IMG/VR virus record: IMGVR_UViG_2695420382_000009
Location: 1 to 9,742 of that record
Direction: 5' to 3' (one strand)
DNA length: 9,742 nucleotides
Source of the DNA: a virus
Lineage: Duplodnaviria > Heunggongvirae > Uroviricota > Caudoviricetes
Shown: piece after piece, positions 1 to 9,742 of the stretch
Layout of the letters: each line of letters opens with the position of its first letter
How positions within the stretch are numbered: position 1 is the first letter of the stretch
Program-made: the position numbers and the translations under genes
Notes under the pieces: model-generated
Database searches by the model: none
The model's input: the letters and a program-made list of their open reading frames with translations, nothing else
What the model was told of the DNA's origin: nothing

Positions 1-199
1 TACACTAAATCAGTAAGTTGGCAGCATCACCCGGTAATTATTGAGTAATAATAAATTGATTATTGCAAATGTAATTTAATTCCATCTTCGCGTTATATTC
101 CAATCTTTAATCTCCGCATGGAACAAGTTGCATGCGTGACTATATTAAGACAACTTATAACCACCAAAACATTTGCTTTGCAAGCAAAAACAGTGACCA

Positions 200-228
200 T
201 TGACTCTAAGAAAATTCCGATCTATTGT
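200..228 (+). promoter_or_regulatory. Candidate sigma70 promoter (speculative)
   Basis: TTGACT at 200-205 (5/6 match to the -35 consensus), 17-bp spacer, TATTGT at 223-228 (4/6 match to the -10 consensus), in AT-rich DNA upstream of the small ORF at 263. Motif match only. Confidence 0.2.
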
Positions 229-262
229 TAGGGTCATCAAAGTTACTTAACAGTATTCCGAA

Positions 263-364
263 ATGAAAATACAAAGCAAGCTAATTGTCTTATTAAACAT
301 TATTATTGCATTTATATTATTTGAGCTTTTAGCTCAAAAATTTGGTTTGAGTACATTATTTTAA
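263..364 (+). CDS. Hypothetical small hydrophobic peptide, 33 aa (speculative)
   Basis: ATG 263-265 to TAA 362-364, translating to MKIQSKLIVLLNIIIAFILFELLAQKFGLSTLF. One predicted hydrophobic helix. No convincing Shine-Dalgarno (only GAAA before the ATG). Lies between the candidate promoter and the terminator at 513-543. Confidence 0.15.
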   Translation: MKIQSKLIVLLNIIIAFILFELLAQKFGLSTLF

Positions 365-512
365 AGCAAGATAAACAATATCGGGCACTCTAGTTTTTAT
401 AATTAACAATTAAACGTCCATAAAATGTTATTTACTTTTCTTCGCTATTGTCATATCTTAATATAGTGGCTTACGCCACTCTACTTTCATCACATTTTGT
501 ACGTTTATGTAC

Positions 513-543
513 TCGCCATGAAGCTCTTTCATGGCGATTTTTT
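513..543 (+). terminator. Rho-independent terminator, plus-strand orientation
   Basis: Perfect 10-bp stem (513-522 TCGCCATGAA pairing with 528-537 TTCATGGCGA), 5-nt loop GCTCT, then TTTTTT at 538-543. No U-run on the other side, so it is unidirectional. Confidence 0.6.
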
Positions 544-629
544 ATTCTTAATCCAAGAACATACTCCCTACCTATAGCAAAATCACTTTTTTAACAAAAG
601 AATAACGTATTTAGGTAATCATTACGAAT

Positions 630-1211
630 TTACCCTATAGGTGCTACTGGCCATTCAATATCCGGTGCAGTTGATGTATCAACACGGTTCAGCAACACCC
701 GATACTTTTTCCAGGCTTCCAGCAACAAGGTTTCTTTCTCCGTTGCGATCTCCAGATCCACAGCATCCTGAAGCGGCGCTATATGCTCACTGGCTACCTG
801 CATCAGGCTGTTTTTTGTTTCTTCCGCCTCCCGGATCCGGAACAGTTTTTCTGCTTCCGTATCCTTCACCCAGGCTGTGCCGTTCCACTTCTGAAACTCC
901 CCTTCCGGGGATAACCAGGTGACATTTTCCGGTAATGAGCCGAGTTCAGAAATAAATAACGCGTCGCCGGAAGCCACGTCATAAACCGTTTTACCCCGAT
1001 GATCTTCAACGAGATGCCACGATGACTCATCACTGTTGAAAACAGCCACGAAACCAGCCGGAATATCTGGCGGTGCAATATCGGTACTGTTTGCAGGCAG
1101 ACCTGTATGAGGCGGAATATATGCGTCACCTTCACCAATAAATTCATTAGTTCCGGCCAGCAGGTTATAAATTTTTATGGTCCGTGCTTGTTCACTCATT
1201 CTGAATGCCAT
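630..1211 (-). CDS. tfa: Tail fibre assembly protein, lambda Tfa type (Caudo_TAP family), 193 aa
   Basis: 193-aa [27 protein letters not shown]...[25 protein letters not shown], matching lambda Tfa / K-12 TfaR as I recall them. ATG at 1209-1211 overlaps the stf stop (TAATG), the classic stf-tfa coupling. GAGG Shine-Dalgarno about 9 nt upstream. Confidence 0.92.
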
Positions 1212-3410
1212 TATGCGAGCCTCACAATATAGTTAAATGCGATGTTTTTGACGGTGTTTTCCGCGTTACCAGCAGCGTTAACGGTGATGGTGTGTCCATG
1301 TGAACCAATCGCAACAGAGTGCGTATGAGCACCAATACCGACAGTATGCGCGTGTGCACCCGCAGATGCTGCTGTGCCGGACAGTGAGTGTGTATGGTTT
1401 CCTTCTGAAGATGATTTACCTACCCATTGGGAGGTGCCACTGGTTAATGAGCCACTGATACCAACCTGATTAGTCCCGCTAACTTGAGTACTCCCTGCCG
1501 GAAACATTCCAGTAGGTTGACTCCCGCTATTCGTTCTGGGCCCAGTCTGACTATGTTGGTGGGCCCCAGCTGAACTTGTAGAGCCGCTCAGACTGTGCGT
1601 ATGCGCCCCGGTGTTATTCGTGGATTTAGTGCCGTAATCAAACGACGATGTGGTTTTCGTCCCCAAATCCGTACTGGATGCGCTGGCGCTGTGGGTGTGC
1701 GATTTAATGCCATCCTGTTCCTGAGACAATACGGCACGACCACTGGCGGGCTTGCCCTTAATCGTCCAGCCACGCATATCAGGGATCACGCCTGACGGAT
1801 AAGCGGCTGCAAGTTTCGGGTAAGCAGATTTGTCAAAAGTCTGCCCCTGCATCAGGGCATAACCAGACGGAACGGTATCTGATGGCCACGGGATTGGTGC
1901 ACCGACTGGATAAAACTCTGCAGGAGGATGAGCCGAGGTGTAAAGCTGCGCCCACGGCGACCAGTTTGCGTCGGTCGTATCCCGTCGTGAACGAATAAAT
2001 GCCGGAGCATGAGCACCGCTTGTACCACTCCAGCCGATGAGTAACTCACCTTCGCCAACGGCTGTCATCCCTTTCAGGTGAATGATATTTCCATACGCTG
2101 TTGGATATCCGTTGTTATACACCTCGTATAACTCAAGACCTGCTGCCCCCTGCGTATTGTCTGTCAGCGCGGCTACCCGACCTTTTGAAGCCAGATTAAC
2201 TGATGATACTGCTGTTCCACCTGACGGTAGCGCCCCGATCTCTGATGCCGTTGGCTTATTTCTGGAGTTATAGTCCCTTCGCCAGCCAGGTGAATAATCT
2301 GTTCCGTGATTAATATAGGTAAACTGGGCGTTGGTTGTTCCGCCACCGCTGGATGTGGTCGGAGTGGTAATGCGGATCGTCATCGCTGACTTTATCCCCA
2401 TTACTTCAATGACAGCTCCGGCGAGATGAATATTACCGCAGCCAGTATCAGTAATGATTTTATTATTGCCATAAGACCAGGAACCCTTGCACATCCAGTA
2501 TGGATGGTTAAATGCTCCCTGAGAATCCAGCCACTCGATAAACTGTGCAGTCGTCCAGTTTCCTGTTGTTGTGCTTACTGACCCACCGAAGGCACGGCAG
2601 GCACCAATATTTTTCGTAAAGGTGTCTTTGCCAGGGATATCCGCACCGTTCTGATCTTTCTGCAGACGTTTCTCAGCATTGTCATTGGCTGCTTTTACTG
2701 CCTTTGGCGTTGCCGCCAGCGTTTCAGACGTGCTGTTGGTCGCGCTGCTTAGCTGGATTATCCCTTTCTGTGCTGTCGTTGCATCCTGTGCGGTGTATTT
2801 CCCGTTAGCCAGGTCATACGCGGCCTTAACGGCTTTTGGTGTTGCCGCCAGTGACTCGGAAGTGCTGTTAGTCGCACTACTGAGCTGTACTATCCCCTTT
2901 TTCGTCGTGCTCGCATCCTCCAGCGCCACGGCGGATGCAATATCCTCTGCCCGTTTTGCCGCTGTCTCAGCGCGCGTTGCTGCAGATTCCGCCGTACTTT
3001 TGCTCTGAGCTGCTGCCGTCGCACTACCAGCAGCCTCTGTCGCCTTCGTGGATGCCGTCGTGGCGCTGCCCTTCGCTGCTGACGCCTGTCTGGTCGCCTC
3101 ATCTTTTGAAGCAGACGCCGATGATGCCGATGACGCCGCCGAACTGGCGGACGATGCGGCAGCCGTTTTTGAGGATTCTGCACGGGTTTCCGACGCTTTC
3201 GCGTTCGTTTCGGATGTCTTCGCTGCGGAAGCTGACCTCGCTGCTGCCGTGGCCTGCTCAGTGGCTTCGCCAGCCTTCGTTGTGGCTGTTGAAGCGGATG
3301 ATGCGGCGCTTTCTGCCGATTTTCCGGCGGCGGTGGCACTGGCTGAGGCCTGCCCGGCACTTGTTGACGCGGCGCTGGCAGACGACGCAGCCGCTGTTTT
3401 TGAGCCTGCC
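1211..3410 (-). CDS. stf: Side tail fibre protein, 3' portion (central repeats plus lambda Stf / Rac StfR-type C-terminal domain); 5' end cut at n3411
   Basis: Ala/Ser/Thr-rich repeats, duplicated KGI(V/I)[11 protein letters not shown](S/T)[11 protein letters not shown] motif, His-x-His-rich distal region, C-terminus ...[26 protein letters not shown], stop TAA at 1211-1213. The track ORF 1211..3607 is chimeric: above n3411 it encodes an unrelated tfa-like N-terminus and begins with a TTG. Confidence 0.85.
2687..2899 (-). repeat. Imperfect tandem duplication (about 132-bp period) of the conserved phage tail-fibre repeat inside stf
   Basis: The protein motif [27 protein letters not shown] recurs 44 aa later as [27 protein letters not shown]. 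The DNA copies are visibly similar (for example GGCGTTGCCGCCAG... appears twice). Confidence 0.7.
3234..3410. repeat. 177-bp exact repeat, identical to 6839..7015 (stf central region), ending at n3411
   Basis: Base-by-base comparison: GACCTCGCTGCTGCCGTGGCCTGCTCAGTGGCTTCGCC...GCTGTTTTTGAGCCTGCC is identical in both places. A third, near-identical copy with a few SNPs lies in stf at about 5290-5465. Confidence 0.9.
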
Positions 3411-3411
3411 N

Positions 3412-3571
3412 CGTAAGCAATTTTTATGGTGTCTGGCTGAAAATTCTTTTGTTCCTCATACCAGTTTTTGCCATCTTCGCAAAAGAGCCATACCACGCCC
3501 GCTTTTTTAGTTAGCTGGTATTGTTCCGGTGTTTTCGGATTCCCGGCCTTAATATTTTTCAGGTGCATCAT
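3412..3571 (-). CDS. 5' fragment (53 codons) of a P2 G / Mu U-type tail-fibre assembly chaperone gene; cut at n3411
   Basis: ATGATG at 3566-3571 lies 1 nt after the stop of the upstream stf (TAAGATGATG), with a GGGGAG Shine-Dalgarno. It encodes [53 protein letters not shown], which resembles the N-termini of P2 G-like Tfa proteins as I recall them. The frame then runs across n3411 into stf repeat sequence. Confidence 0.6.
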
Positions 3572-3572
3572 C

Positions 3573-6329
3573 TTAAACACTCCCCACGTTGTACCATATT
3601 CCCCCAATCAATTTCTGAATTGGCCTTCTGGCAACAGTGTCGACAATATCATCCGCATTGCTGTTAATTGCGGCTGTTAAAACATAACCTGACGCATCGC
3701 CAAAGCCGTAGTCGCGCCATACGTTTTTATATTCAATGCTGCCAAGACGAATATCCCGAACGACATGATTATGCAGCCATGTGCTTAACCAGTTGTTTTC
3801 CCACACTGAACCATAAATATCGCCACTAGACGCAACTTGCGCACCACTTCCCAGCGCAAATCCCCCATCTGTTTTAAAAATGAAATCACCACCACCATCT
3901 GAACCGTTATTAATATGAACACCATCACCACCGTTATCTTTCCACAAAAACATACGAATTCTTCCGTCTTCGTTGGCGAATGTAATGTGGTGGCGGTAAT
4001 TACTTTTTAATCTAAAATTGCTGCCATTAGATTCAATATCTTTATAAAGATGTAATCCTAACTCATCAATATGTCCGATGCGCGAACCATTTGAATAGAA
4101 GCTAATAATACCATCTCCATCTTGCCTAAATCCGGTGTCGTTATCTCCCAGAACAATGGAGTTTTCACCCAGTGCGTTATCAGTAGCTCCAATAGCTAGA
4201 CCTCCTTTAATTTTGGCCCCGTGGCTGACAGATATAGCACCTGTTCTCAGATTTATAGCGAATGGCCTTAATGGGCCGATATTACCGTTTTCGCCTTGTC
4301 CTTCAGCCGTCGGAATGAAATGAAGAAAATCTTCTGAACGACGGAAAATTAGACCGAAGGTATCATTGAAAATTCGCAGCGCATTCACCGTGCCAATTTT
4401 CAGTTCTCCGGTCATTTTATCGCCGGAACGCTGAACGGCGTTACCAGCCTTGTTTACCGTTTCCTGTAAACCGAGGTATTCGATAACGGCAGCAACGGTC
4501 GATTTCGCAAGAATATCCCGCCCGACTTTTGTCAGGGTTGCCAGGCTGGCGACATCATTCCCCGTAAAATACGGAAACTTGCCTGCCGCAGTAGTAAGTC
4601 CGGCCAGCGCCGTCAGGGTGGCATCTTTCGGTTGCTTACCCGCAAGCGCGTTAGTCATGGTGGTCGCAAAATTCGGGTCGTTGCCCAGCGCCGCAGCCAG
4701 CTCGTTCAGCGTGTTCAGTGCATCAGGTGACGAATCTACAAGGGCGGCAATCGCAGCCATAACGAAAGCCGTGCTTGCGATTTGGGTATTATTCGTTCCC
4801 TGTCGCGCAGTTGGTGTTGTTGGCGTTCCGGTCAGTGCAGGACTATTTAAGGGCGCTTTCTTGTTCGTTTCACCCATTACCGCCTTAACCGCTTTTGGCG
4901 TTGCCGCCAGTGACTCGGAAGTGCTGTTGGTCGCACTGCTGAGCTGTACTATCCCCTTTTTCGTCGTGCTCGCATCCTCCAGCGCCACGGCGGATGCAAT
5001 ATCCTCTGCCCGTTTTGCTGCTGTCTCGGCGCGCGTTGCCGCGGATTCAGCAGCAACTTTGCTCTGAGATGCAGCCGTCGCACTGCCTGCCGCCTCTGAT
5101 GCTTTCGTTGTTGCTGTCGTGGCACTACCTTTCGCTGCTGACGCTTGTCTGGTCGCCTCATCTTTTGAAGCAGACGCAGATGATGCCGATGACGCCGCTG
5201 AACTGGCTGACGATGCGGCTGCTGCCTTAGAGGAAGCAGCATTGTCTGCTGAAGTCTTTGCATTTGTTTCAGAGGTTTTTGCTGCAGAAGCAGACCTCGC
5301 TGCTGCAGTGGCTTGCTCAGTGGCTTTGCCAGCCTTCGTTGTGGCTGTTGAAGCGGATGATGCGGCGCTTTCTGCCGATTTTCCGGCGGCGGTGGCACTG
5401 GCTGAGGCCTGCCCGGCACTTGTTGACGCGGCACTGGCAGATAATGCAGCCGCTGTTTTTGAACCTGCCGCAGCTGAGGCGCTCTGTCCCGCTGCTGTTT
5501 CAGAAGACTTAGCGTTCGTCTCGGACGTTTTTGCCGCCTTCGCGGAATTTCCTGCCGCCGTTGCCGAGGAAGCTGCACTACTGGCACTTGATGATGCATT
5601 CGTTTCTGAAGATTTCGCTGCCTCTTTTGAGGCCGCCGCACCCCGTGCCGAGGTGGCAGCTTCTGACGCCTTCGTGGTCGCTGTGGATGCAGAAGTGGCT
5701 GCCGATTTTTGTGATGCTGCGGCATTCGTTTCTGACGTTTTCGCGGCACTGGCGCTGGTAGCTGCCGCGCTTTTTGATGACTCTGCAGCAGCACTTTTTG
5801 CTGCTTCACGGGCCTTTGTCGATGCCGTTCCTGCGCTGGAAGACGCTGACTGAGCCGACGACGCGGCCTGTCCGGCTGACGTGCTGGCGGCACGTGCTGA
5901 GGCTGCAGCATCGGTTGCATGAGTTGCCGCCTCGCTGGCTGATTTTTTCGCGGCTGCCGTATTCTGTGCAACCGCGGAGGCGTTACGTGACACCTCTTCC
6001 ACCATCTGCTCAAAGCGGCGCAGTGCCTCCGGTCGGACATCATCCTCCGTCATGGCACCGAGAAAATCATTCAGCGTACCTGGTCTGGAACCTTCATAGA
6101 CGGTAATGGTCCCGGCATGTGAAGGCGGAAAACCTTCAACCAGCAGGGTGACGCTGTACTGACCATGCTCAACATCCATGCTGTAACGTCCGGCTTCATC
6201 CGGATTTTCAGAGGCCACCGTGTTCACCACCATCGTGCTGCTGGTTCGTCTGGCCTTCAGCACAATGGTGCAGTTCTGTACTGGTTTTCCTGTGCCATCT
6301 TTAAGCACGCCAGAAATTTTTACTGTCAT
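3573..6329 (-). CDS. stf: Side tail fibre protein, complete, 918 aa, with a C-terminal domain different from the one at 1211..3410
   Basis: ATG at 6327-6329 with GGTGGA Shine-Dalgarno. N-terminus [22 protein letters not shown]... is the conserved Stf start. Long Ala/Ser/Thr-rich repeat region, one [26 protein letters not shown] motif, then a distinct roughly 435-aa C-terminal region (3573..4880) containing [10 protein letters not shown] and ending ...[11 protein letters not shown]. Stop TAA at 3573-3575. Confidence 0.9.
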
Positions 6330-6342
6330 ACTTTTCCACCAA

Positions 6343-6375
6343 TAAAAAAAGCCCGCAGCAGTGACGCCACGGGCT
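6343..6375 (-). terminator. Putative intrinsic terminator downstream of the lom 3' fragment (minus strand)
   Basis: On the minus strand, stem AGCCCG/CGGGCT (6350-6355 with 6370-6375) and a 14-nt loop, followed by a U-run (plus-strand AAAAAAA at 6344-6350). The loop is long, so this is weaker than the one at 7911-7936. Confidence 0.4.
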
Positions 6376-6480
6376 TCAGGACAGTGTAACTTTACGTTTC
6401 CTCAAACGCAGTTCACCCCATAAGGTGGATGAACCTGCGTATCATAACAATATTTACAGAAGATAAATCGGCGTCTGTTG

Positions 6481-6837
6481 TCAGATACGGTATCCGATAC
6501 CAACAATAAATGCATCCGTTCGCCAGTCACCACTACCGGAACCTTCATAAGCAAGGTCAATGGTCACGGATTCGGTCGGGTTAAACTGCACGCCAGCCCC
6601 CCACGCCAGAGACGTGTTGCTGTGGCGACCGTCATCACTTCCGGTCAGCACATCGTGCGTTTTCCCCTTGTTGTCAGTTACGCGGAGATAATCCCCGGAG
6701 AAAGTCGACACACGGCTGTAAGCCACACCCACCATCGCATACGCGCTGAACCATTCATTCACGCGTACAGACGGCCCCGCCATCACGCTGAACCAGCGGT
6801 TACGCACGGAATCTTCATGCCAGCGGGTATCGCTGTA
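6481..6837 (-). CDS. lom: lom 3' fragment (Ail/Lom outer-membrane protein, C-terminal 118 codons); 5' end cut at n6838
   Basis: Encodes YSDTRWHEDSVRNRWFSVMAGPSVRVNEWFSAYAMVGVAYSRVSTF...AWGAGVQFNPTESVTIDLAYEGSGSGDWRTDAFIVGIGYRI, stop at 6481-6483. Matches the lambda Lom C-terminal half. The track ORF 6481..7905 joins it in-frame to stf across n6838, which is an artefact. Confidence 0.8.
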   Translation of the reverse strand, partial: YSDTRWHEDSVRNRWFSVMAGPSVRVNEWFSAYAMVGVAYSRVSTFSGDYLRVTDNKGKTHDVLTGSDDGRHSNTSLAWGAGVQFNPTESVTIDLAYEGSGSGDWRTDAFIVGIGYRI

Positions 6838-6838
6838 N

Positions 6839-7899
6839 GACCTCGCTGCTGCCGTGGCCTGCTCAGTGGCTTCGCCAGCCTTCGTTGTGGCTGTTGAAGC
6901 GGATGATGCGGCGCTTTCTGCCGATTTTCCGGCGGCGGTGGCACTGGCTGAGGCCTGCCCGGCACTTGTTGACGCGGCGCTGGCAGACGACGCAGCCGCT
7001 GTTTTTGAGCCTGCCGCAGCTGAGGCACTCTGTCCCGCTGCCGTTTCAGAAGACCTGGCGTTCGTCTCGGACGTTTTGGCCGCCTTCGCAGAATTTGCAG
7101 CCGCCGTCGCCGAGGAAGCTGCGCTACTGGCGCTTGATGATGCGTTCGTTTCTGATGATTTTGCCGCCTCTTTTGAAGCCGACGCATCCCGGGCTGAGGT
7201 GGCAGCTTCTGACGCTTTCGTGGTCGCGGTGGATGCAGAAGTGGCTGCTGATTGTTGTGACGCTGCCGCATTCGTTTCTAACGTTTTCGCCGCACCGGCA
7301 CTGGTAGCCGCCGCGCTTTTTGAGGACTCTGCAGCGGCAGCACTTTTTGAGGCTTCAGTGGCCTTTGTTGATGCCGTTCCTGCGCTGGAAGACGCTGACT
7401 GAGCCGACGAAGCGGCCTGTCCGGCTGACGTGCTGGCTGCACGTGCTGAATCTGCAGCATCAGTCGCATGGGTTGCCGCCTCACGGGCTGATGTGCTGGC
7501 ATCGCTGGCTGATTTCTTCGCGGCTGCCGTGTTCTGTGCCACCGCGGACGCGTTACGCGCCACCTCTTCCACCATCAGCTCAAAACGGCGCAGTGCCTCC
7601 GGACGGGCATCATCCTCCGTCATGGCACCGAGAAAATCATTCAGCGTACCGGGTCGGGAATCTTCATACACGGTGATGGTCCCGGCATGTGACGGCGGGA
7701 ATCCTTCCACCAACAGAATAACGCTGTACTGACCGTACTCAACGTCCATGCTGTAACGCCCGGCTTCATCCGGATTTTCTGAGGCCAGCGTGTTCACCAC
7801 CACCGTGGTGCTGTTACGTTTTGCTTTCAGCTGGATTGTGCAGTTCTGTACCGGTTTTCCTGTGCCGTCTTTCAGTACACCTGAAATCTTTACTGCCAT
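6839..7899 (-). CDS. stf: Side tail fibre protein, 5' portion (353 codons); 3' end cut at n6838
   Basis: ATG at 7897-7899 (the track's start at 7905 is a GTG two codons upstream), GGGGTG Shine-Dalgarno. [60 protein letters not shown]... is the lambda Stf N-terminus as I recall it. About 90% identical to the N-terminal half of the stf at 3573..6329, with small indels such as an extra DASTSAR. Confidence 0.85.
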
Positions 7900-7910
7900 A
7901 TTCACCCCAC

Positions 7911-7936
7911 AAAAAAGCCCGCCTGAACCGGCGGGC
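7911..7936 (-). terminator. Rho-independent terminator between lom and stf (minus strand)
   Basis: On the minus strand, a perfect 7-bp GC stem GCCCGCC/GGCGGGC (7917-7923 with 7930-7936), 6-nt loop, then a U-run (plus-strand AAAAAA at 7911-7916). About 28 nt after the lom stop and about 12 nt before the stf start codon. Confidence 0.7.
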
Positions 7937-7963
7937 TGTCATAACACTGTGTTACCTGGCTAA

Positions 7964-8649
7964 TCAGAATTTATAACCGACACCCACGATGAAACCGTCA
8001 GTGCGCCAGAGACGTGTTGCTGTGGCGACCGTCATCACTTCCGGTCAGCACATCGTGCGTTTTCCCCTTATTGTCAGTTACGCGGATATAATCCCCGGAA
8101 AAAGTCGACACACGGCTGTAAGCCACACCCGCCATCGCATACGCGCTGAACCATTCATTCACGCGCACAGACGGCCCCGCCATCACGCTGAACCAGCGGT
8201 TACGCACGGAATCTTCATGCCAGCGGGTATCGCTGTAGTGCGTTTTTTGCTCATCCTCAGCATTGGCATAACTGAAGGACGTAANNNNNNNNNNNNNNNN
8301 NNNNNNNNNNNNCGCTGAACCATTCATTCACGCGCACAGACGGCCCCGCCATCACGCTGAACCAGCGGTTACGCACGGAATCTTCATGCCAGCGGGTATC
8401 GCTGTAACGGGTCAGCTGGCGATTCTTGTCTCCTGCATAGCTGAATGACGTCACCAGCCCCAGCGTATCCGTAAACTCATAACGGTATTTCACGTTAATC
8501 CCGTTCAGATCATCACTGCCGGGAACGTTGGTCCGGGCATGAAGATACCCCGCGCTCAGCGTGGACTGATGTTCAGACGCCCATGCAGGCGCACCGGATA
8601 CGGCCAGGCAAATGGCTGCGGACAAAATGGCTGCACAAACTTTACGCAT
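7964..8649 (-). pseudogene. lom: lom (Ail/Lom-family outer-membrane protein), disrupted by the 28-N gap, a 94-bp duplication across the gap and an about 83-bp frameshifting deletion near the 3' end
   Basis: ATG at 8647-8649 with GAGAGGT Shine-Dalgarno. MRKVCAAILSAAICLAVSGAPAWA signal peptide, then SEHQSTLSAGYLHARTNVPGSDDLNGINVKYRYEFTDTLGLVTSFSYAGDKNRQLTRYSDTRWHEDSVRNRW.... Sequence 8144..8237 is repeated at 8313..8406 on either side of the gap. The reading frame ends ...SNTSLAH with a stop at 7998-8000, while the remaining homology (RTDGFIVGVGYKF, stop at 7964-7966) is in another frame. Confidence 0.7.
8285..8312. other. Assembly gap (28 N) inside lom
   Basis: Run of n characters. It is flanked by a duplicated 94-bp lom segment, and the lom sequences on either side of that segment are different alleles. 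Confidence 0.99.
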
Positions 8650-8673
8650 AATTACCTCTCGCTTTTCTGCAAT

Positions 8674-8697
8674 AAAAAAGGCGTCATTCCTGACGCC
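8674..8697 (-). terminator. Rho-independent terminator between J and lom (minus strand)
   Basis: On the minus strand, a 7-bp stem GGCGTCA/TGACGCC (8680-8686 with 8691-8697), 4-nt loop, then a U-run (plus-strand AAAAAA at 8674-8679). About 23 nt after the J stop and about 25 nt before the lom start codon. Confidence 0.6.
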
Positions 8698-8719
8698 ATT
8701 TATTGGGGTTATAAATATT

Positions 8720-9742
8720 TCAACGAATACTGATGCCGGAAGCCGCTTTTTTGGTCACAATCACCGTACAGTCGGTGATATTGCCTGCCCCCTGATTGCC
8801 TTTCTGGAAAATCTTAAACTCCAGAGTGACGCTACCACCACCACTAGGCATATCAATAACTGCACTGTAACTACCGGGAATGGCACCTTTAGTTTCTCTG
8901 GATGCGATTAATACGCCGTTTTTGCGAACTTCAAAACCATAACCCGTGTATCGCGTGCCTCCTGGGTTATTTCCGCTCCCCGGATCGTCATACGCTATAC
9001 CGTTAAAAATAATGGGCGGAATAATAATCTGGCGGTCAAAGTTATGATCATCGCTTATGGTGACTGTAACCGTCCCGTTTGGTGTTTCCGTGTTACCCCA
9101 CGTACCAGCCTGTTTCGGAAATGATTTGGATACAGCTTTAACGAAGTCACCTCTGACCTGAGTCGCCTCCAGCATGCCCTTAATCGTACAGTTTTCATTT
9201 ACCGTGACATTGTTGAGCGTCCCGGCGTTCGCATTCACACTGCCACTGATATCCGCATTTTTAGCGGTCAGCTTTCCGTCCGGAGTCAGGGAAAATGCCG
9301 ATGGATTTCCACCGCTGGTAATGGTGGGGGCCGTCAGGCGTTTCAGGAACACGTCGTTCATGAATATCTGATCGCCCTGACCAACAAACATCGGTTTTGT
9401 GTTGCCATTCGCAGGATTAACCATCGCAATCCTGTCCGCCGCCAGCAGCACCTGACTCTGCATGCCGTCAGGGGTGTTCTCAATACCGGCACCAATACCC
9501 GCGATATAAAGGCGTCCGTCCTGCATCTGCTGCAGCTTCACAGCCCACATGCTGTTCAGGTTATTATTTGTATCAACCTGAACCTTCTGTATCTGCTGAA
9601 TTGCCGCACTCTGGTCTTCCAGTTTCTTATTGACGGTCTGCGTGATTTCATTGCTGACATCCGTAATGGACGTCCTGATTTCAGCCAGGTCAGGCGCAAG
9701 CTGACCGTTATCAATCTGCGTCCACAGCTCCTGAGCCAGATG
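8720..9742 (-). CDS. J: Host specificity / tail tip fibre protein J, C-terminal 340 codons (partial; 5' end lies beyond the window)
   Basis: The frame is open from 9742 to the TGA at 8720-8722. It encodes HLAQELWTQIDNGQLAPDLAEIRTSITDVSNEITQTVNKKLEDQSAAIQQIQKVQVDTNNNLNSMWAVKLQQMQDGRLYIAGIGAGIENTPDGMQSQVLLAADRIAMVNPANGNTKPMFVGQGDQIFMNDVFLKRLTAPTITSGGNP..., matching lambda J as I recall it. The track ORF 8720..9550 is only the part after an internal Met. Confidence 0.9.
   Translation of the reverse strand, partial: HLAQELWTQIDNGQLAPDLAEIRTSITDVSNEITQTVNKKLEDQSAAIQQIQKVQVDTNNNLNSMWAVKLQQMQDGRLYIAGIGAGIENTPDGMQSQVLLAADRIAMVNPANGNTKPMFVGQGDQIFMNDVFLKRLTAPTITSGGNPSAFSLTPDGKLTAKNADISGSVNANAGTLNNVTVNENCTIKGMLEATQVRGDFVKAVSKSFPKQAGTWGNTETPNGTVTVTISDDHNFDRQIIIPPIIFNGIAYDDPGSGNNPGGTRYTGYGFEVRKNGVLIASRETKGAIPGSYSAVIDMPSGGGSVTLEFKIFQKGNQGAGNITDCTVIVTKKAASGISIR

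Follow-up and report, generated by a model that had tools for sequence, protein, structure and literature searches.

The window, i.e., the whole stretch of 9,742 nucleotides analyzed here, is composed of four contigs that are joined at N 3411, N 6838, and N 8285-8312. The contig between the first two joints (piece B, positions 3412-6837) comprises the 3′ part of a lom gene, a complete mosaic stf gene, and the start of a chaperone gene (Table 1), and all genes of the region 3412-6329 are located on the minus strand. The 918-amino-acid Stf reported for 3573..6329 in an earlier note on this DNA (here called Stf918) agrees with both the open reading frame and an exactly matching public protein. 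The identical protein was found in 272 blocks of public assemblies and in four finished chromosomes among them, e.g., that of Shigella sonnei 53G (HE616528.1). With the exact protein being this widespread, including in complete chromosomes, the reading frame is not a product of chance. Long plus-strand open reading frames overlie the shaft (4450-5067, 5119-5853, and others) and were dismissed as artefacts that arise antisense to its GC-rich Ala/Ser/Thr codon repeats. Rfam and tRNA scans of 3412-6329 yielded zero matches, and the promoter and terminator scan of the same region stayed at background level except for a hairpin upstream of stf.

Table 1. Features of piece B and its two joints; coordinates refer to the window, and prophage 2 is the one carrying Stf918.
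Feature	Position	Strand	Evidence or remark
Scaffold joint, single N	3411	.	Prophage 2 contig (tfa codon 53) to mid-Stf of prophage 1
tfa, first 53 codons, Mu U / P1 U type, cut by scaffold joint	3412..3571	-	Full gene in parent locus
stf, 918-aa lambdoid side tail fiber	3573..6329 (incl. stop)	-	ORF list, ATG start; Pfam phage_tail_N, gp37_trimer
Sv, variable putative receptor-binding tip, Stf residues 620-918	3576..4472	-	phmmer, Foldseek, PF20744
26-bp Gin/Cin/Pin-type crossover site, encodes (V)IEYLGLQE	4461..4486	-	TTATCGAATACC-TC-GGTTTACAGGAA
Phage_fiber_2-type repeat and constant region, end of Sc, Stf residues about 457-619	4473..4961	-	pHN68-3 match
Lambdoid Ala/Ser/Thr-rich shaft, Stf residues about 135-456	4962..5927	-	Common to other stf pieces; GC 0.56-0.60
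Prophage tail-fiber N-terminal anchor, Stf residues 1-134	5928..6329	-	PF08400 phage_tail_N, E 3.6e-69
lom 3′ part (Ail/Lom outer-membrane protein), same prophage as Stf918	6481..6837	-	Translation ...YSDTRWHEDS...GYRI*
Scaffold joint, single N	6838	.	Stf shaft of prophage 1 to Lom C-terminus of prophage 2

Fiber, tip and chaperone

Stf918 scored 231 bits for phage_tail_N and 27.5 bits for gp37_trimer. It belongs to the lambdoid side tail fibers by its anchor domain (the 231-bit match, residues 1-134) and by the gene order J-Lom-Stf in the parent locus (L003), where a full Lom of 199 aa with PF06316 lies upstream of Stf918. Anchor and shaft had been described as common to the other stf sequences of the window, and this was confirmed by 85% identity between residues 1-277 and the N-terminal Stf fragment at 7899..6839 and by 88% identity between residues 354-491 and the shaft of the Stf fragment at 3409..1214. 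Beyond about residue 483-491, no significant similarity to the latter fragment was found. Since the similarity ends there, the roughly 435 distal amino acids are unrelated to the other Stf, as had been claimed; only the motif given as the beginning of this region was misplaced, since it starts at residue 634 and not at about 484, leaving 285 aa from the motif to the end. From position 4960 downward, the DNA is 95.9% identical to the tail-fiber gene of the P2-like plasmid-prophage pHN68-3 (L001), with no match upstream of 4960, and residues 65-150 of Mu S align with Stf residues 408-491. Stf918 can be read as a mosaic of a lambda-type anchor (1-134), a lambda-type shaft (about 135-456), a constant region of the P2 H / P1 S / Mu S type (about 457-619), and Sv (620-918).

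Searches with the tip by phmmer returned the Mu S/S′ chimera 8JU3_A (E 2e-15) and Mu S itself (5YVQ_A, E 2e-14). The best Foldseek matches were likewise 5YVQ_A (1.4e-11) and 8JU3 (2.9e-5), at low TM-scores (0.25) and with an AlphaFold2 monomer model (pLDDT 70.5, pTM 0.36) fit only for ranking folds and not for structural detail. The tip region alone scored 30.9 bits for gp37_trimer (PF20744), and the GC content falls to 0.42-0.44 across it. Judged by sequence and predicted fold, the distal region is a genuine fiber tip homologous to Mu S/S′, which bears out its assignment as a fiber-tip domain in the earlier note. Homologs of Sv, 1,671 in number, sit on varied N-terminal parts; comparison with P2 H and P1 S along the full length gave 30% identity, and the distal 889 nt are 98% identical to the fiber/tfa genes of P1-like plasmids of about 90-130 kb. 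The fiber tips of Mu, P1, and P2 bind the LPS core.

Following the stf stop codon (TAA at 3575-3573) and a single base (3572), tfa begins with ATG ATG CAC CTG and continues for 53 codons to 3412, so that the one-nucleotide spacing noted before was read correctly. As the 53-aa fragment by itself has no Pfam match, it was identified via the 100%-identical parent locus, from which a full Tfa of 175 aa (Tfa175) was recovered. With 126.8 bits for Caudo_TAP (PF02413; cut-off 22.1), this protein is a member of the chaperone family expected for the downstream reading frame. Its identity is 82% with Mu U and 85% with P1 U, and it matches 5YVQ_B over residues 1-175 (E 1e-93); the Pfam score above the gathering score together with the full-length similarity to Mu U places it in the Mu U / P1 U subgroup. 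The proposal that this chaperone differs in type from lambda Tfa held for the N-terminal part, which is of the Mu U / P1 U type and unrelated to that of lambda-type Tfa, but not for the family as such, as both are Caudo_TAP proteins whose last 65 aa align at 45% identity. In the modular Tfa mechanism, the N-terminal part is the fiber-binding domain (PMC9608196).

Placement of the contig

All 3,426 nt of piece B recur at 100% identity in the loci L003-L008 and L010, and in complete genomes the prophage of Stf918 adjoins trpABC. The three flanking pieces (8313-9742, 6839-8284, and 1-3410, referred to as D, C, and A) map at 99.97-100% to one different S. sonnei locus (L014) with the order J-Lom-Stf(1027 aa)-lambda-type Tfa. 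The position 3412, formerly taken as a module boundary, follows an N and marks a scaffold joint rather than a biological border; the sequence after the tfa fragment is the mid-shaft of another Stf, reached across an artificial junction. The contig end at tfa codon 53 lies 1 nt beyond an inverted repeat in which the 5′ ends of tfa and tfa′ are 71% complementary over 159 nt. No repeat of at least 25 nt was found at this contig end within L006, and no IS end is visible there, unlike at window positions 1-31.

One phage with two tandem side fibers, one of the alternatives raised by the earlier note, is suggested only by the order of the sequences within the window and is, in our view, highly improbable. 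The N joints fuse tfa codon 53 to a mid-shaft Stf and a mid-shaft Stf to mid-Lom, the flanking pieces overlap mutually by 94 and 177 nt in L014 and leave no room for piece B, and a distance of about 550 kb separates the two modules on the chromosome that carries both loci (UGZB01000001.1, L005 and L014). Single-N misjoins of the same kind occur in other draft S. sonnei assemblies. Since the flanking pieces form one locus and piece B belongs to a prophage about 550 kb away, the tandem arrangement is, by sequence comparison, a product of scaffolding. What stands of the two alternatives is the other one, i.e., two prophages with different tips. The chance that Stf918 itself is an assembly chimera of a lambdoid Stf and a P2/P1-type tip is next to nil. 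Such a chimeric contig was first suggested by megablast, as none of 5,426 complete E. coli genomes covered at least 80% of the piece in one place and the proximal and distal parts matched different record sets. However, the lack of an E. coli match at this coverage follows from the fact that the E. coli set lacks Shigella, and the chimera was ruled out by the exact protein and DNA in complete S. sonnei genomes, with the protein occurring in the 272 blocks mentioned above. Furthermore, the architecture recurs in a prophage of E. coli O121, in which the last 185 aa are different.

An invertible cassette in the parent locus

Mu gixL, taken from the Mu genome sequence at the G-segment boundary annotated there, reads TTATCCAAAACC-TC-GGTTTACAGGAA. 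The left crossover site (4486..4461) agrees with gixL in 24 of 26 positions and sits where this boundary aligns. The right site lies outside the window at 14760-14785 of L003 and reads TTATCTAAAACC-TC-GGTTTACGAGAA as reverse complement. In the parent locus, the inverted sites (26-30 bp) are 2,890 nt apart, and the 26-bp pair has conserved half-sites and the same central dinucleotide. The exchange point falls between Leu619 and Gly620 and splits Stf into a constant part (1-619) and a variable part (620-918). The window itself holds only Sv and 53 tfa codons of the cassette; the right site, U′, S′v, and the invertase remnant lie outside and are deduced from the loci that match the contig at 100%. 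There, the order is J, Lom, Stf918, Tfa175 (plus strand), Tfa′177 (minus strand), S′v (minus strand), the 26-bp site, and a Resolvase remnant. Two opposed sets of a fiber 3′ end and a tfa are thus found between the sites of L003 (Sv and Tfa175 on the plus strand, Tfa′177 and S′v on the minus strand), and Tfa′ (177 aa) is 85% identical to Mu U′. By these sequence features, the tip and its tfa are half of a Gin/Cin/Pin-type invertible segment that lay beyond the reach of the earlier note. The note's suggestion of two alternative fibers in one phage holds for the tips of the intact ancestral form, but by means of DNA inversion and not in tandem.

The cassette is decayed. An intact small serine invertase (Resolvase plus HTH_7) adjacent to it was not found at the parent locus, where 60 codons are left that are 95% identical to Gin residues 1-60 (PF00239, 57 bits) and end in a stop and a deletion joint. 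The corresponding pin remnant of 183 nt matches the 5′ end of gin at 96.7% identity and is fused to the 3′ remnant of a lambda-type tfa. S′v is a pseudogene with a nonsense codon in seven (L003-L009) of the eight S. sonnei loci that contain the S′v start motif, J is broken up or absent from the gene calls, and the prophage contains IS1 copies. Intact 195-aa invertases were found in P2-like prophage sequence scaffolded beside the locus in the drafts L004 and L006, with the Resolvase and HTH_7 domains confirmed by Pfam for the L006 copy.

Compared with the Mu G segment (S-U / U′-S′, gix, Gin), gene order and orientation are the same, the site sits at the homologous point of the fiber gene (..LGLQETVN..), the chaperones and the invertase remnant show the high identities given above, and the tip is homologous to the solved S/S′ structures. 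The segment length is about 2.9 kb here and 3 kb in Mu (PMC12529663). Unlike in Mu, a myovirus with an Sc of 170 aa, the constant part is of lambda type and 619 aa long and belongs to a siphovirus-type prophage; Sv matches S/S′ only in patches, at about 30-42% identity, the invertase gene has been cut short, and S′v is usually a pseudogene. By its description, the P segment of e14 with PinE is also an invertible cassette for a tail-fiber C-terminus in a defective lambdoid prophage, inversion of which joins the constant 5′ part of stf to alternative 3′ parts and which can be driven by the invertase of another prophage, PinQ/PinR (PMC4272514, PMC12529663); in contrast to the locus studied here, e14 has a 1.8-kb segment and an intact pinE. 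The C segment of P1/P7 (S, U, Cin) is similar in the 85% identity of Tfa175 to P1 U, and the P1 record notes that its own segment is 93% identical to the Shigella boydii pinB locus (B segment). However, the two Sv tips share only about 30% identity, and P1 has a different constant part and virion type. Lambda Stf/Tfa (Ur-lambda) resembles the locus in the anchor domain, the site after J and lom, the shaft composition, and a Caudo_TAP chaperone directly downstream. It is set apart by the distal about 435 aa, which bear no relation to the collar/His-rich tip that the window's lambda-type Stf has, and by the Tfa N-terminal domain.

Taken together, we consider it very probable that 3412-6837 is a contig of a decayed S. 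sonnei lambdoid prophage with a Mu-style invertible tip cassette that was mis-scaffolded into the Stf of a second prophage. By homology to Mu, P1, and e14, a Stf trimer would be anchored to the tail by its N-terminus, with the tip bound by the N-terminal domain of Tfa and the conserved C-terminal helices of the latter driving trimerization. Sv and the Mu U-like Tfa would represent the expressed half of a roughly 2.9-kb Sv-U / U′-S′v segment with the second inverted site as far bound. A small serine invertase would cut both sites at the central TC and flip the segment, whereupon the constant part would be fused to S′v with U′ downstream and receptor specificity may change, following the logic of the Mu G segment (PMC4406740). 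At this locus, the system has decayed through the reduction of the invertase gene, the nonsense codon of S′v in most genomes examined, and the split of J, and because of this decay flipping would depend on an invertase acting in trans.

Presumed inversion in trans and its possible meaning

In L006 (FUDT01000051.1, a draft of another S. sonnei isolate), both reciprocal hybrid sites are present with the exchange exactly at the central dinucleotide, along with an in-frame Sc::S′v open reading frame of 691 aa. Both orientations hence occur according to this draft assembly, and since one draft holds both recombinant junctions, the segment can flip. The cassette appears able to do so without an invertase of its own, the enzyme presumably being supplied in trans. 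The contig of the window runs unbranched through the crossover site, with no sign of mixed orientation in that assembly. Given the truncated cis invertase and the nonsense codon of S′v, the cassette could have become locked in this strain.

A pure fossil, i.e., a relic site without inversion at which Stf918 and Tfa form a fixed module of a virion-less cryptic prophage in this strain, is a serious possibility that we hold to be somewhat less likely than not. The pin remnant joined to a foreign tfa end, the nonsense codon of S′v, the state of J, the IS1 copies, and the unbranched contig all fit this explanation. Against it stand the hybrid junctions of L006, which show a past exchange in at least one S. 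sonnei isolate, and the left site, which is identical to a site in the P2-like prophage with an intact invertase on the same L006 scaffold. In addition, the retained part of pin corresponds to the 5′ part of gin/hin/cin, in which the Fis-dependent recombinational enhancer lies. Precedent for a heterologous Pin acting in trans comes from e14 (PMC12529663), where PinQ inverts the P segment (PMC12529663, PMC4272514). Co-option by the host, in which inversion yields a Stf variant that keeps other phages from adsorbing, has a precedent in PinQ/StfE2 of E. coli K-12 (PMC12529663), and it would suit a segment apparently invertible in trans and 100% identical across many S. sonnei genomes. We nevertheless regard it as very improbable, for the nonsense codon cuts the alternative tip in most genomes. 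The identity of the cassette is no evidence of selection either, because S. sonnei is a young clonal species. That the pin-less cassette is kept and trans-flipped by the invertase of the co-resident P2-like prophage, with Stf variants serving the host by, e.g., receptor occlusion, would by analogy be conceivable as a long shot.

The decayed, mis-scaffolded prophage contig that we favor carries little biological weight, as the systems of Mu, P1, and e14 had already established invertible tips that come with their own chaperones and the exact gene is already present in hundreds of public S. sonnei genomes. The tip allele is without a close relative among isolated phages (44% identity at best), while the chaperone is 82-91% conserved. 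For draft genomes of this kind, single-N joints can splice a contig into the homologous gene of another prophage and create false layouts of tandem fibers. The identical crossover sites in two prophages could, if cross-talk between them is real, drive larger chromosomal rearrangements in S. sonnei.

Provenance of the pieces and the joints between them

Non-ACGT characters in the 9,742-nt window comprise one N at 3411, one N at 6838 and 28 N at 8285-8312, and all sizeable genes are carried by the - strand. At position 3411 a tfa gene breaks off at codon 53 and abuts mid-shaft sequence of an Ala-rich Stf; at 6838 an Stf shaft abuts the middle of Lom. Since these two joints are not natural, the window was handled as four pieces, A to D (see table). 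Piece B, which contains the side tail fibre studied here (Stf918), matched seven Shigella sonnei parent loci at 100% identity along its whole length of 3,426 nt (locus positions 9493-12918), with pieces A, C and D reaching only 88-94% identity to this locus. A look-up of Tfa193, the lambda-type chaperone at window 630..1211, led to a second locus, L014, belonging to another lambdoid prophage. Here, D, C and A occupy coordinates 3244-4673, 4580-5978 and 5802-9180 (100%, 100%, and 99.97% identity) and overlap by 94 and 177 nt, so that the three follow one another within a single J-Lom-Stf(1027 aa)-Tfa(193 aa) tail end.

The scaffolder placed piece B in the middle of the Stf gene of this D-C-A locus. 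Identical single-N joints occur in other draft S. sonnei assemblies, precisely at the points of departure from the finished genome. The tandem fibre layout, which the earlier note had considered as one phage encoding two alternative side fibres, is thus a scaffolding artefact, given the N joints and the overlaps in L014. Both loci are found on one chromosome, UGZB01000001.1 (6,265-29,021 and 563,504-580,085), which bears out the other reading offered, namely that the source strain carries two or more lambdoid prophages whose fibre tips differ.

The exact 918-aa protein was found in 272 blocks of public assemblies; finished chromosomes containing it include HE616528.1, CP044191.1, CP029794.1 and CP179997.1, the first being that of S. 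sonnei 53G (PMC5447701). A search of 5,426 complete E. coli genomes found none in which >=80% of piece B was covered at one place. Lambdoid prophages of this set match window 6837..4129 at about 96%, and the distal 889 nt match genes for 'tail fiber protein' and 'tail fiber assembly protein' at 98-99%. The latter matches are carried by P1-like plasmids, small phage-plasmids and some chromosomes. Both kinds of context (the lambdoid prophages and the carriers of these distal genes) share one arrangement, in which the fibre gene and tfa are followed by a second tfa and a fibre 3′ end, both inverted, and then by a recombinase.

Some observations concern the ends of the pieces. Between the overlapping pieces D, C and A the scaffolder put Ns rather than merging them, and it inserted a foreign contig. 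The final 47 nt of piece C (8238-8284) had no match to the L014 locus at >=95%. Window 1-31 (TACACTAAATCAGTAAGTTGGCAGCATCACC) is a terminal inverted repeat of IS1, as is typical of contig ends in the IS-rich S. sonnei. Because L014 has no IS1 at the matching point, the contig was probably cut short here by an insertion specific to the strain. Window 3412 corresponds to L003 12918 (L003 being one of the parent loci), where the contig stops 1 nt past an inverted repeat of 159 nt, in which the first 53 codons of tfa and those of tfa′ are 71% complementary; neither an exact repeat nor an IS end accounting for the break at 3412 was found.

Positions of the pieces and of the features of the fibre cassette
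Feature	Position	Strand	Remarks
Piece A	window 1-3410
Piece B	window 3412-6837		contains the finding
Piece C	window 6839-8284
Piece D	window 8313-9742
stf ORF (Stf918)	window 3573..6329	-	918 aa
Left crossover site	window 4486..4461	-	reads TTATCGAATACCTCGGTTTACAGGAA
Tfa175	between sites, parent locus		82% identical to Mu U, 85% to P1 U
Tfa′177	between sites, inverted		85% identical to Mu U′
S′v, alternative tip	between sites, inverted
Invertase remnant	just beyond right site		60 codons, 95% identical to Gin residues 1-60, 96.7% DNA
Hybrid site TTCTCGTAAACC-GA-GGTATTCGATAA	L006		links S′v to inverted copy of constant part
Hybrid site TTCCTGTAAACC-GA-GGTTTTAGATAA	L006		links inverted start of Sv to pin remnant

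The fibre, its tip and its chaperone

Pfam assigned phage_tail_N to residues 1-134 of Stf918 (231 bits) and gave a weak match of gp37_trimer to residues 782-847. Over residues 1-277 the protein shares 85% identity with the other Stf N-terminus in the window, and over residues 354-491 it shares 88% with the other shaft. This likeness stops at about residue 483-491. The different tip described previously was correct; the motif quoted for it starts at residue 634 and not at about 484. The shaft has a GC of about 0.58-0.60, which drops to 0.42-0.44 over the distal 750 nt.

Both the homology search and structure prediction of the variable tip alone (Sv, residues 620-918) led to the fibre of phage Mu. 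By sequence, Sv matched 8JU3_A (2e-15) and 5YVQ_A (2e-14), and an AlphaFold2 monomer model (pLDDT 70.5) gave fold matches to 5YVQ_A (1.4e-11) and 8JU3 (2.9e-5), followed by T7 gp17, T4 gp34 and S16 gp37. The 1,671 homologues of Sv in E. coli, Salmonella and Shigella sit on P2 H-type or other N-termini, or as silent cassettes. Among isolated phages the best full-length match reached only 44% (Yersinia Mu-like phages), and identity to P2 H and P1 S was about 30%. By analogy with Mu, P1 and P2, it might be guessed that the receptor of Sv is the LPS core.

The tfa ATG starts one base past the Stf918 stop, and the full gene, recovered from the 100%-identical parent locus, encodes Tfa175 (Caudo_TAP, 127 bits; E 1e-93 to 5YVQ_B). 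In contrast to Sv, this protein has 82-91% identity to its U counterparts in Mu, D108, SfMu, P1 and P7, in accordance with the Mu U/P2 G type proposed in the earlier note. That the two chaperones in the window are of different kinds did not hold, since Tfa193 and Tfa175 both belong to Caudo_TAP and share the C-terminal 65 aa, to which their alignment is limited (45% identity). According to a published model, the variable N-terminal domain of Tfa binds the fibre and the conserved C-terminal helices trimerise, and TfaMu remains on the virion (PMC9608196, summarising North et al. 2019). Sharing the C-terminus alone fits this modular model.

Three further features were noted. Rfam IS009 (RF02111) matched at full length (218 bits) to window 670-868 (-), inside the lambda-type tfa CDS. 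A strong terminator-like hairpin (6348-6377, -; 13-bp stem, then a T run) separates lom, with its stop at 6481, from stf, which starts at 6329, so that stf expression would require read-through or an own promoter. Antisense ORFs of 200-240 aa (4450-5067 and 5119-5853, +) opposite the Ala/Ser/Thr-rich shaft, with similar ones in other shafts, most likely arise from the GC-rich, repetitive codons and are not genes.

A decayed invertible segment with a crossover site inside the fibre gene

At the annotated boundary of its G segment, Mu reads TTATCCAAAACCTCGGTTTACAGGAA, which is identical to the left crossover site of Stf918 at 24 of 26 positions, and the protein text flanking this site aligns with Mu S 166-194. 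The left site has an inverted partner, with the same central dinucleotide, 2,890 nt downstream in the finished genome. Exchange at the central TC would bring the constant part of the fibre (Sc, residues 1-619) in frame with S′v. The invertase remnant closes with a stop and a deletion joint to the 3′ remnant of a lambda-type tfa (L003 14840-15160), a deletion scar which suggests that the prophage once also had a lambda-type tfa.

In the draft assembly of one parent locus (L006, FUDT01000051.1), both reciprocal hybrid sites (14760-14785 and 16122-16147) are present besides the parental sites, and an Sc::S′v ORF of 691 aa was called. As this contig needs reads from both orientations, site-specific exchange happened in at least the L006 isolate; this implies a culture of mixed orientation despite the truncated cis invertase, which itself is dead. 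The same scaffold also bears a P2-like prophage whose left site is identical and which encodes an intact Resolvase+HTH_7 invertase of 195 aa, and a precedent for inversion in trans is PinQ, which flips the e14 P segment (PMC12529663).

Other features point to decay or inactivity. In the parent prophage J is split or uncalled, no branch is seen at the crossover site in the contig of the window itself, and S′v contains a nonsense codon (L003 13998-14000), being TAA for Gln in L003-L006, L008 and L009 (L007 gave no output). Since L010 (CP179997.1) keeps Gln, this pseudogenisation is lineage-specific.

Overall, the earlier observation was confirmed and its interpretation partly supported; the real route to two alternative tips, which had been missed, is inversion of DNA at the crossover site within Stf. 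The system belongs, in decayed form, to the classical Gin/Cin/Pin class of invertible tail fibres and resides on a lambda-type Stf, onto which the cassette of e14 is likewise grafted.
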